This document shows, piece after piece, positions 3,001 to 6,000 of a DNA stretch of 38,039 nucleotides; position 1 is the stretch's first letter, and each line of letters begins with the position of its first letter. Position numbers: made by a program. Source of the stretch: Candidatus Bilamarchaeaceae archaeon. GTDB lineage: Archaea; Micrarchaeota; Micrarchaeia; Anstonellales; Bilamarchaeaceae. The DNA lies in contig JAVZJR010000003.1 in the NCBI GenBank assembly GCA_038870635.1, forward strand, positions 69,204-107,242, in the 5' to 3' direction.

Positions 3001-6000
3001 GAGTGCTAAAGCCGCTGCGAAAGCGATGGTAGCACAAGGACTTCCAGCAAGCGAGATAGAAACTTATAGCAAAATATTCACGGTTTACGATGAAAAAGGT
3101 ATAGAATATCAAAAAACCTTTGCGGATGTTGTTAAGCAATATAATCTTGAAATAAATTTGGCAGAGAAGATACAACAGGCAGCAATAATTGCATATCTAA
3201 AAAAGAAATTTGAAATATTGCGTCCCTACCCTCTAGTAAAATTTACTCTTCAAGCACTTCGTGAGAAAGGTTTTCTTTTAGGTATTGTTACAGATGCGCC
3301 AAGGAATAAAGCATGGCAAAGACTTGTCTTAACTGGGCTTGAAAATGAGTTTGAAGTAGTAATCACAAAAAACGATACAAATGAAGAAAAGCCAGCAGTT
3401 TCTGCTTTTTTGCTTGCAGCAAAAAAATTAGGACTAACTCCCTCTTCTTGTTTGTTTGTTGGTGATAATCCAGCAAAAGATATAAAGGGGGCGAAAGAGG
3501 CAGGTATGATTACTTGTCTTGCAAAATATGGTGTTTGGAATAGAGACAGCGATGTTAAAGCAGATTACGAAATAAATCAGTTTGAGGAATTAATCAAAAT
3601 AATTGAAAAGGTGGAGTCATGATAGAAGTCGCATTGGAAAAGAGCAGTTATTCACCCGGCGAAGTCATAAATGGAAAGATTATTTTAAACTTTGAAAAAA
3701 AGATAAAAACAAGAGGAATATATGGAACACTGCTTTGCCATGAGAAGAAAAAAATAGTTTCCGTAAGGGAAATGGATTACTACGATTATAATGAGGATAA
3801 AAGCCTGGGTGTCCCACGCTCATCAAACTTAAGAACAACAGTACAATATCGTGATGATATAATCTATAGAGAGGACAAGGTTATCGCACAAGAAGGAACA
3901 TACTTTAAGGAAACATTTCCTTTTAGTTTTTCACTACCAAAAAATGCCGCACCCACAAGCAAAGAGTATGGGCACGACAATAAAATAAATTTTTGGGAAT
4001 TAGAAGTAAAAGTTGACATTCCATTTGCTTTTGATAAAAGAAAAATAATAGAAGTTTTTGTAGAAGGTTTATGAGATGATGGGATGGTGGAGATAACTTG
4101 CTATGGAGGTATTAATGAAATAGGAGGTAATAAGTTTTTAGTTGAGAGCAAAAAAACACGCATATTTTTAGATTTTGGCCAATCATTTACTTTGCTTGAT
4201 GAATATTTTGTTCCAGAGGCATATCTTTATCCAAGGGAACGTTTTGGGCTGCGCGACTATTTTGCTTTCGATCTTTTACCTCAACTAAAAGGCCTTTACT
4301 CAAAAGAGGCCATAGAAAGAACTTCTCTTCCATTTTCCCATCCAGAATATGATGGTGTTCTCATCAGCCATGCTCATATAGACCATATTGAGCATCTTAA
4401 ATATCTCCATCCAGAAATACCAATTTATTTAGGCGAGGCAACGAAACTTATAATCGATTCCGCACAGGTTACTTCTTTTAATGGAGTTTCTTACATAAAA
4501 CAGGATACACCTACAATTACTTTTAGGACAGGTAAAGATTTTTCTATAGGTGATTTTAACATTAAACCAATTCATGTAGATCATTCCATACCAGGTGCTT
4601 ATGGCTTTATAATAGAAACCCCTGAAGGAAATATTGTTTATAGTGGAGATTTAAGAAAACACGGTCCTCGTGCTGATATGACCGAAGATTTTTTAAAAAA
4701 AGCAGCAGAGTGTGACCCAATACTATTTATTATAGAAGGAACGCGCGTTGCAGAAAAAGAAAAAAGAAAAAATCATAGCGAGGGTTTTGTGCAACAGGAA
4801 TCTTTACGTATAGCACAAGAGAAAAAAGGACTTATTCTAGCAATGCGTTATCCAAAAGATATCGATAGATTTAGAACTTTTTACAAAGTTGCAAAAGAAA
4901 CAGGAAAAGAATTGGTCATAACACAAAAAACAGCGCATTTGTTATTGTCTTTAAAGAACGACCCAGTTGGTCTTCCTGATCCTTATAATGATAAAACAAT
5001 AAAAATCTACAAACGTGAGAAAAAAGTTTATCAACCTTGGGAAAACCAAATAACTACTAATTGTGTTGATTCAGAATATATATCTAAAAATAAAAACAAC
5101 ATCATTCTCGAACTAGAATTTTCACAGCTTCCAGAACTTATAGATATAAAACCAGATGGAGGTGCCTGTATTCATTCAATGAGCGAGCCTTTTGAGGAAG
5201 ACCCCCTCTCTCAGATTTCAGAAGAAGTTTTGAGAAGATGGGCAAAGAAATTCAATTTAGATTATTATCAACTTCATGCTTCCGGACATGCTTCCATGGG
5301 AGAAATATTTCAGTTTATAGAGCAGGTTAATCCTGAAAGAGTCTTACCTGTACATACAACAGGTGCCCATCTTTTTAAATGCGAAAACGTTCTCTTACCA
5401 CTAAAAGGACAGACTATCTCTCTCGATTGAAGAAGCGGTAACTCAACAGCTACTCTTGTCATCACATCTCAGACTGGGACGGTAATTTCATCGTTACCAA
5501 TTTTATTATGCATAATTTAAAATTAAAACTTATGTTTTTGACGAAATCTGCGAAGAGTAGGAGAAGCTTTATATATTTTTTTTAAGAAAAACAAACGGAA
5601 AGGGTGTGTTGATGGAGCTCACTGAGCAAGAAAAAATAAAAAATGGAATCTGTCCTTCCTGTGGTGCTAATCTTGTTTTTCAAGAAGGTTGTATGACTTG
5701 TATGCAGTGCGGTTGGGGCGCTTGCGACGGTTAATTTTTTACCTCTTGTTGTTTTTCTTTTTGTTCTTCCACTTTTAGCGTTTCTGTTTTTGGTATATTT
5801 GTTTCCGTTATTACTTTCACTACCTCCTCTTCTGACAAGAAAATGTAGTTTGCATTTTTTAATTTTTTATAAAATTTGTATTGATTCTCTAAAGAAGGAG
5901 GAGTTTCAAAGAAATTTCCTATCCCTTCGAACATACCATACCAGCCAGCTGGTACTAATAGTATCTCTACCAATCTTATGAAATAATTTGTACCATCGTA

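Follow-up and report, generated by a model that had tools for sequence, protein, structure and literature searches.

How is a class II ribonucleotide reductase (RNR; NrdJ) re-reduced when its chain ends without C-terminal cysteines, and could a free zinc finger of some 40 residues stand in for the missing tail? The question is raised by a very short gene in the stretch of DNA analyzed here (the window; 38,039 nucleotides from the genome of a Candidatus Bilamarchaeaceae archaeon, Micrarchaeota). A first-pass annotation had proposed that this gene and an unlinked paralogue encode the six-cysteine finger of the organism's B12-dependent RNR as separate microproteins that act in trans.

The window gene encodes a free six-cysteine finger related to the class II RNR tail

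The gene, termed copy a, and its neighbors in the window are as follows.

1065-2501, minus strand: likely DNA polymerase D (PolD) small subunit, 3 kb upstream of the finger
4084..5430, plus strand: RNase J-like beta-CASP metallo-beta-lactamase, the upstream neighbor, ending 181 nt before the finger
5568..5575, plus strand: TTTATATA, candidate archaeal TATA box read from the sequence, ~37 nt upstream
5602..5606, plus strand: Shine-Dalgarno-like GGGTG read from the sequence, 5 nt upstream of the ATG
5612..5734, plus strand: free six-cysteine zinc finger, copy a, 40 aa, from the open reading frame and homology
5731..6390, minus strand: 219-aa protein of no known family, convergent, with a 4-nt overlap with the finger stop
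6418-7653, minus strand: GGDEF-domain protein
7873-9393, plus strand: PrsW-family protease

The 40-aa, six-cysteine reading frame was confirmed at the position first proposed. Its cysteines (C14, C17, C27, C30, C33, and C38) are spaced C-x2-C-x9-C-x2-C-x2-C-x4-C, as a zinc ribbon, and the best NCBIfam match of the protein was to positions 724-758 of the 759-position PRK08665 model (E 1.3e-7), with the next family at 0.004. The GGA at 5597-5599, named earlier as the ribosome-binding motif, gives way to a better one, GGGTG; a GGTG, GAGG, or GGAG word lies upstream of 16 of 21 copy-a starts, compared with 64 of 609 control windows. The candidate TATA box suggests that copy a may have its own promoter. 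The RNase J-like gene is not a general neighbor of fingers across genomes, and the convergent arrangement with the 219-aa gene is repeated in G001 and G003. GGDEF-domain proteins, such as the one encoded downstream, are unusual in archaea.

Alignment of the finger with the fused RNR tail by hhalign gave a probability of 96.8 (E 2.9e-10). Six cysteines, P15, E25, and G34 were invariant in 41 aligned free fingers, a set picked by the six-cysteine motif that leaves out the five-cysteine copy of G031. The 2-9-2-2-4 spacing is common to 15 of the 23 fused fingers examined, and copy a carries the CxxC-x9-CxxCxxC-x4/5-C array of NrdJ terminal zinc fingers at its very C terminus, with homology to the NrdJ tail in sequence. 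Copy a had no Pfam or NCBIfam match among the thioredoxins, glutaredoxins, or NrdH proteins, and its structural model is a zinc ribbon. These alignments indicate that copy a is homologous to the C-terminal redox finger of NrdJ.

A collection of species yielded 68 finger loci, of which 57 were free and 11 were RNR C termini; none of the 57 free fingers had an RNR within up to 3 kb. Seven viral finger loci comprised six RNR C termini and one free finger. That phage matches fall mostly inside annotated B12-RNR genes, as claimed earlier, was borne out among the best 40 of 85 phage records: 33 were annotated as vitamin B12-dependent or unqualified ribonucleotide reductase, 4 had other RNR annotations, 2 were unannotated, and 1 was hypothetical. 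One phage contig has a free finger frame of 48 codons (L236:3022-3168), and the 7 kb of it that were examined contained no RNR.

Records of close finger relatives are mostly titled Micrarchaeota, and a word-indexed homologue search with the finger returned two proteins. Many stand-alone-looking homologues of 31 to 75 aa occur among metagenome proteins, for most of which completeness and context are uncertain. Context searches for three stand-alone homologues from outside the Micrarchaeota (P0059, P0037, and P0080) found no relatives. One free finger comes from a record with the title Pirellulales; it adjoins an archaeal PolD gene and was set aside as probably mis-binned.

The sole RNR detected in the genome lacks a cysteine tail

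The enzyme that the finger would serve is encoded on a different contig.

C4:94527-96623: class II RNR (NrdJ), g00766, 698 aa, with no further RNR found

Membership of g00766 in class II is clear (735 bits to TIGR02504, cut-off 400), and the chain comprises an ATP cone, an all-alpha domain, and the barrel. Its only cysteines are at positions 196, 378, 389, and 660. Three of these (C196, C378, and C389), which make up the catalytic triad, are invariant and align with the Thermotoga maritima enzyme, and the NxCxE loop is present. The fourth, C660, lies in the barrel, is common to fused sister enzymes, and is followed by 38 residues; the chain itself has neither a C-terminal cysteine pair nor a finger. 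Three forward frames over ~470 bases downstream of nrdJ contained no finger, which rules out a frameshifted or read-through tail and upholds the description of g00766 as lacking C-terminal cysteines. Neither NrdD nor a TSCPD/NrdJb protein (PF12637) was found in this genome, which is 89.6% complete.

Free fingers and tail-less NrdJ occur together across relatives

The co-occurrence of microprotein and RNR was examined in a family sample of 67 Micrarchaeota genomes at least 85% complete. The NrdJ clade of g00766 (E at most 2e-40) was present in 56, a distant RNR in 5, and no match in 6. A free finger was found in 54 of the 56 genomes with this clade and in 1 of the 11 without it (55 of 67 overall), in keeping with the phyletic match first proposed. 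The stricter form of that proposal, that genomes lacking an RNR also lack the finger, is not strictly true: G036 (84% complete) and G204 (97%) carry a finger, and no RNR of the classes searched was found in either.

Absence of the tail, previously checked in a single relative (G011), proved general. The 3' ends were closed and free of cysteine after the barrel in 53 of the 56 same-clade family enzymes, the 53 being those read (all but G246, G300, and G307). Over all samples, 59 same-clade tails were closed and 23 to 57 residues long; 58 had no cysteine after the barrel and that of G021 had one. Two further tails (G002 and G026) were cut by contig ends.

In a 61-genome sample, none of the 11 genomes with a fused TSCPD-plus-finger NrdJ had a free finger, and genomes with a class I-like RNR, a monomeric-like RNR, or NrdD only were likewise without one. 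A class-wide search gave a match in 150 of 301 genomes, a tally that includes one unpublished genome on which no conclusion here depends. Among the matches listed, those outside the organism's own family and genus g31 lay in frames of at least 752 aa, save two contig-end fragments, and all 20 of these that were examined were RNRs ending in the finger.

Exceptions were few. Three apparent ones (G058, G060, and G229) were rejected as such, since nrdJa and nrdJb are adjacent in each. A tail-less NrdJ with no intact finger was found in G014 (89% complete), G021 (71%), G039 (75%), and G263 (86%). The helical reading frame that precedes copy b elsewhere (ORF X, below) was likewise not found in G014, and the G039 enzyme lies outside the clade. 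Copy b of G263 has lost one base and contains a stop, and the polC gene that neighbors copy a in a congener of G263 was not found there. The only finger detected in G031 has no cysteine matching C27, and nrdJ of G215 is spread over two frames. Searches for a hidden NrdJb in the organism's own genome and in G014, G021, G039, G204, and G263 found none. Gaps in the assemblies could account for most of these exceptions. The G204 assembly contains two full polC genes, and this bin may be mixed.

Several further features of RNRs in these genomes were recorded. The tail-less enzymes of g19 end in a conserved motif, QVLH[VI]GK..KTK[GA]VEED, and in many g19 genomes the N-terminal arm of the copy-a finger is extended; the two could form a docking pair. 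Several same-clade NrdJs have large in-frame insertions, giving frames of 1036 to 1979 aa, which are probably inteins. In G046, a NrdJ of the fused group has a short CPIC tail in the finger's place, a third solution within the same order.

A split was also seen in class III. In eight genomes (G033, G017, G050, G034, G015, G183, G198, and G256) the NrdD chain stops after the zinc site, and the glycyl-radical end is a separate frame of 45 to 77 codons directly downstream, placed before nrdG in the loci read. These short frames were recognized by the YSRxxGY motif, which we take to mark the glycyl-radical end, and G050 has a further, unlinked copy. This split parallels that of the class II enzyme.

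The finger arose by fission and is lost where NrdJ is lost

A tree of 69 RNR cores (513 columns, FastTree; five short cores dropped) placed the tail-less enzymes with free fingers, together with those of G014, G021, and G263, in one clade (0.972), joined at 1.0 to enzymes that mostly carry a fused finger and are 51 to 57% identical. This single clade with fused-finger sisters points to one fission, inside the linker, in the ancestor of the Micrarchaeota clade. A tree of the fingers alone (~33 columns) was too weak for dating the duplication or naming a donor.

Kinship among the genomes had been raised as a caveat to the phyletic match, and losses in several separate places largely answer it. 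On an EF-2 tree of 55 genomes, finger-less kin with another RNR occupy about five separate positions among the genomes that carry a finger (the g12 NrdD users, G013, G015, G010, and G007 plus G029), and the NrdJa/NrdJb users of family f9 may make up a sixth; the tree rests on one gene and splits genus g1, so these counts are rough.

Within genus g12, two of seven genomes (G157 and G215) each carry NrdJ plus two fingers, and the other five (G017, G034, G183, G198, and G256) have NrdD and no finger. At the locus formed by ORF X, the finger, and tRNA-Asn, the finger is intact in G157 and G215. In the three of the five NrdD genomes in which the syntenic locus was aligned (G017, G183, and G034), it has been deleted with different end points; in G017 the deletion is a gap of ~90 nt, and the last codons of the finger remain. 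Deletion of the finger where NrdJ is gone, even though the two genes are unlinked, is the strongest evidence for its function.

The finger differs from known partners of class II RNRs

The NrdJd finger of S. nassauensis is an array of C920, C923, C933, C936, C939, and C945; all six cysteines are required for TCEP-driven turnover, and electron transfer passes between NrdJ subunits (PMC5704485). Its spacing is 2-9-2-2-5, compared with 2-9-2-2-4 here, and both arrays have four predicted zinc ligands plus a cysteine pair. By position against C920/923/936/939 and C933/945, the zinc ligands of copy a are predicted to be C14, C17, C30, and C33, and the redox pair C27 and C38. The S. nassauensis finger is tethered at the end of a domain of 150 to 220 aa, whereas here the finger with an N-terminal helix is the whole gene product. 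The fused ATP-cone NrdJs of other Micrarchaeota (PRK08665-like) have the 51 to 57% identical core already noted, the same ATP cone, and the same finger, attached through a linker (76 to 132 aa from barrel end to stop).

The closest known arrangement is NrdJa/NrdJb. NrdJb supplies thiol-disulfide exchange in trans in Pseudomonas aeruginosa (PMC4520616), and in the survey of Burnim et al., 26% of finger-less class II C termini are free of cysteine, ~40% of these being NrdJa (PMC9669993). As in that system, C-terminal cysteines are missing from the catalytic chain here, and the six-cysteine finger is on a protein of its own. NrdJb has about 210 to 230 aa and a TSCPD/IscU-like domain, which four true NrdJb genomes reveal by PF12637 scores, whereas the protein described here is ~40 aa of finger only and lacks this domain; the earlier statement that it is far smaller than NrdJb was correct. 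Unlike nrdJb, which is operonic with nrdJa, the finger genes are unlinked to nrdJ, as had been proposed: they lie on different contigs, with the 57 free loci devoid of a nearby RNR, and usually number at least two (38 of 55 genomes). The finger comes from a fused lineage without TSCPD, and this fission is therefore separate from that of NrdJa/NrdJb.

No description of a finger-only RNR partner was found in the literature searched, which lay mostly outside subscription papers and supplements. Table S1 of Loderer reportedly lists the domain for each sequence and may bear on the novelty of a finger-only partner. A new variant of split class II RNR with a finger-only partner is a well-supported description.

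A model for re-reduction in trans

We consider it probable that the finger split off from NrdJ by fission and re-reduces that enzyme in trans, as a variant of the NrdJa/NrdJb system with neither docking domain nor operon. In this model, the ancestor would have been an ATP-cone NrdJ that ended in a linker and a six-cysteine finger and was cut once inside the linker; the severed finger would have become a free gene and then duplicated into copies a and b. Adenosylcobalamin-dependent NrdJ would reduce NDP by way of a thiyl radical at C378, leaving a C196-C389 disulfide; these residues come from the alignment and the chemistry from the known family. Zinc bound by C14, C17, C30, and C33 would fold the microprotein and set C27 beside C38, according to the predicted fold and the positional assignment. 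The free finger would then dock at the active-site cleft and reduce the disulfide by thiol-disulfide exchange; this docking and exchange in trans we likewise judge to be likely. A cellular donor would, speculatively, re-reduce C27-C38. Speculative candidates in the organism's own genome are a thioredoxin reductase (TrxR)-like flavoprotein (C5:35480-36379; 330 versus 343 bits) with either a protein disulfide oxidoreductase (PDO) encoded 2.3 kb after nrdJ (C4:98894-99589; 184.5 versus 185 bits) or an MTH895-type thioredoxin (C2:88025-88249).

Of the original proposal of a tail acting in trans, the homology, the tail-less enzyme, and the phyletic match hold, and electron transfer is what we infer from them. 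Several observations count against it. The finger has no physical or genetic link to the RNR, and it lacks the TSCPD/IscU-like domain of NrdJb. The exceptional genomes with just one of the two partners, the five-cysteine finger of G031, and the nrdJ of G215 in two frames weigh against it as well. In S. nassauensis, the isolated cysteine-rich domain aggregates, and the truncated enzyme with this domain expressed separately had no activity with TCEP (PMC5704485).

The main competitor holds that the finger serves NrdJ as a structural, regulatory, or cofactor-pocket partner, while a redoxin or small thiol reduces the enzyme directly. It would explain the joint loss of finger and NrdJ equally well, and the PDO gene near nrdJ and the TrxR-like gene would fit it, as would the G031 finger that is missing one predicted redox cysteine; moreover, ~60% of cysteine-free class II C termini are not NrdJa, and other routes of reduction are possible for these (PMC9669993). 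Nevertheless, the two cysteines not predicted to bind zinc do not vary among the 41 aligned copies, a set defined by its six cysteines. In the S. nassauensis study, the active-site disulfide of truncated NrdJ was reached by DTT and not by TCEP, neither the thioredoxins nor the glutaredoxin tried could support even the intact enzyme, and the native donor was not found (PMC5704485). We regard such a role in place of electron transfer as unlikely.

Two copies of the finger in distinct neighborhoods

The paralogue reported earlier was recovered by a six-frame motif search and phmmer, with ORF X next to it.

C1:99339-99458, minus strand: finger paralogue, copy b, 39 aa
C1:99463-99831, minus strand: ORF X, helical, ~120 aa

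Copies a and b were the only significant matches in the 859-kb genome (E 7e-26 and 1e-10; next, 0.19), and they are ~49% identical. Two or more copies were seen in 38 of the 55 finger-bearing family genomes and a single copy in 17. The PolD large subunit gene is divergent from copy a in 26 of 57 loci, and copy b stands directly behind ORF X in 16 loci. No conserved RNA family was found between polC and copy a in the four loci scanned, which had only tRNAs elsewhere. Tandem or near-tandem copies occur at G258:C4, G206:C8, and G028:C16; G028 has a third copy, placed after an integrase-like ORF where a contig ends.

Of 36 family relatives, 30 conserve ORF X, as do 3 of 4 genomes of family f9, and it had no convincing match in Pfam, the PDB, or the Atlas. 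In the 61-genome sample it is present in 34 genomes, in 18 of which no finger lies behind it. Found throughout the family and retained where the finger is absent, it was rejected as a dedicated partner; ORF X marks the copy-b site. In some g19 genomes (G024, G191, G196, and G202), a CxxC gene of the AhpD/CMD family follows copy a directly or within ~1 kb. An AhpD protein is a possible local reductant in g19; as a general donor it was rejected, with AhpD present in 8 of 67 genomes and absent from the organism's own.

These neighborhoods raise a second alternative, in which the paralogues divide the work: one would reduce NrdJ and the other would be a general dithiol carrier or a partner of ORF X, PolD, or the AhpD-like protein, and the window copy might not be the RNR partner. 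The divergence of the copies, their separate settings beside PolD and ORF X, and an AhpD-family gene adjoining copy a in all four g19 genomes that have one are in its favor. Against it, neither copy type was detected in 10 of the 11 genomes of the family that lack the NrdJ clade, ORF X often stands without a finger, and AhpD is rare. Some genomes have only an a-type copy and others only the ORF X-linked copy, which suggests that the copies are interchangeable. Such a division of labor is improbable.

The finger is a real gene with a zinc-ribbon fold

Among 63 distinct 33-codon finger cores, identity at the three codon positions was 0.80, 0.80, and 0.45, and the median dN/dS was 0.16 over 229 of 1953 core pairs, those with pS between 0.1 and 0.6. 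Because of this codon-position pattern and low dN/dS, the finger is a real gene under purifying selection. AlphaFold2 predicted for copy a a short N-terminal helix followed by a three-strand zinc ribbon (pLDDT 89). The best matches in a fold search were TFS4, Pol I/III subunits, and NudC, none of them significant and all generic zinc ribbons, and searches of solved structures with the finger returned no RNR tail.

The commonness of this fold could mean that the protein is a generic archaeal CPxCG zinc-ribbon microprotein that binds nucleic acid or protein, its likeness to RNR being incidental. Haloarchaeal HVO_2142 and HVO_0416 are likewise small free CPxCG zinc ribbons, and the finger matches both families weakly, far below the curated cut-offs (17 versus 90 bits and 15 versus 80 bits). 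We know of no RNR association for these microproteins. By comparison, the RNR tail matches better by four orders of magnitude; the finger has two extra cysteines and an EGC motif, and all 11 of the non-free loci among the 68 are RNR C termini. A generic ribbon would also leave the co-deletion with NrdJ unexplained, and the deletion scars disfavor it, making this reading very improbable. That the finger is a decaying fission relic, or an artefact of assembly or gene calling, is barely conceivable: the reading frame is very short and one copy is broken (G263), but the codon statistics refute this reading, ribosome-binding sites lie upstream of the starts, 55 of 67 family genomes have the finger, and the RNR ends are closed and cysteine-free over many assemblies.

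Implications

More tentatively, free fingers could form a distinct class of zinc-scaffolded dithiol carriers of ~40 residues, diffusible and catalytic between a cellular donor and the RNR active site, that are partners of many cysteine-free class II RNRs and include the metagenome and phage copies, where the module would serve as a spare or regulated part; we hold this wider reading to be possible, with the balance somewhat against it.

The literature has yet to settle what re-reduces dimeric class II RNRs, and NrdJa/NrdJb leaves ~60% of the cysteine-free class II C termini unexplained (PMC9669993). A natural 40-residue finger and a natural tail-less enzyme separate the two halves of this reaction into small parts, and docking, the roles of the individual cysteines, and the upstream donor become directly testable. 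For the archaeon itself, an essential function of a reduced genome would rest on unlinked microproteins of a kind that annotation tends to miss.
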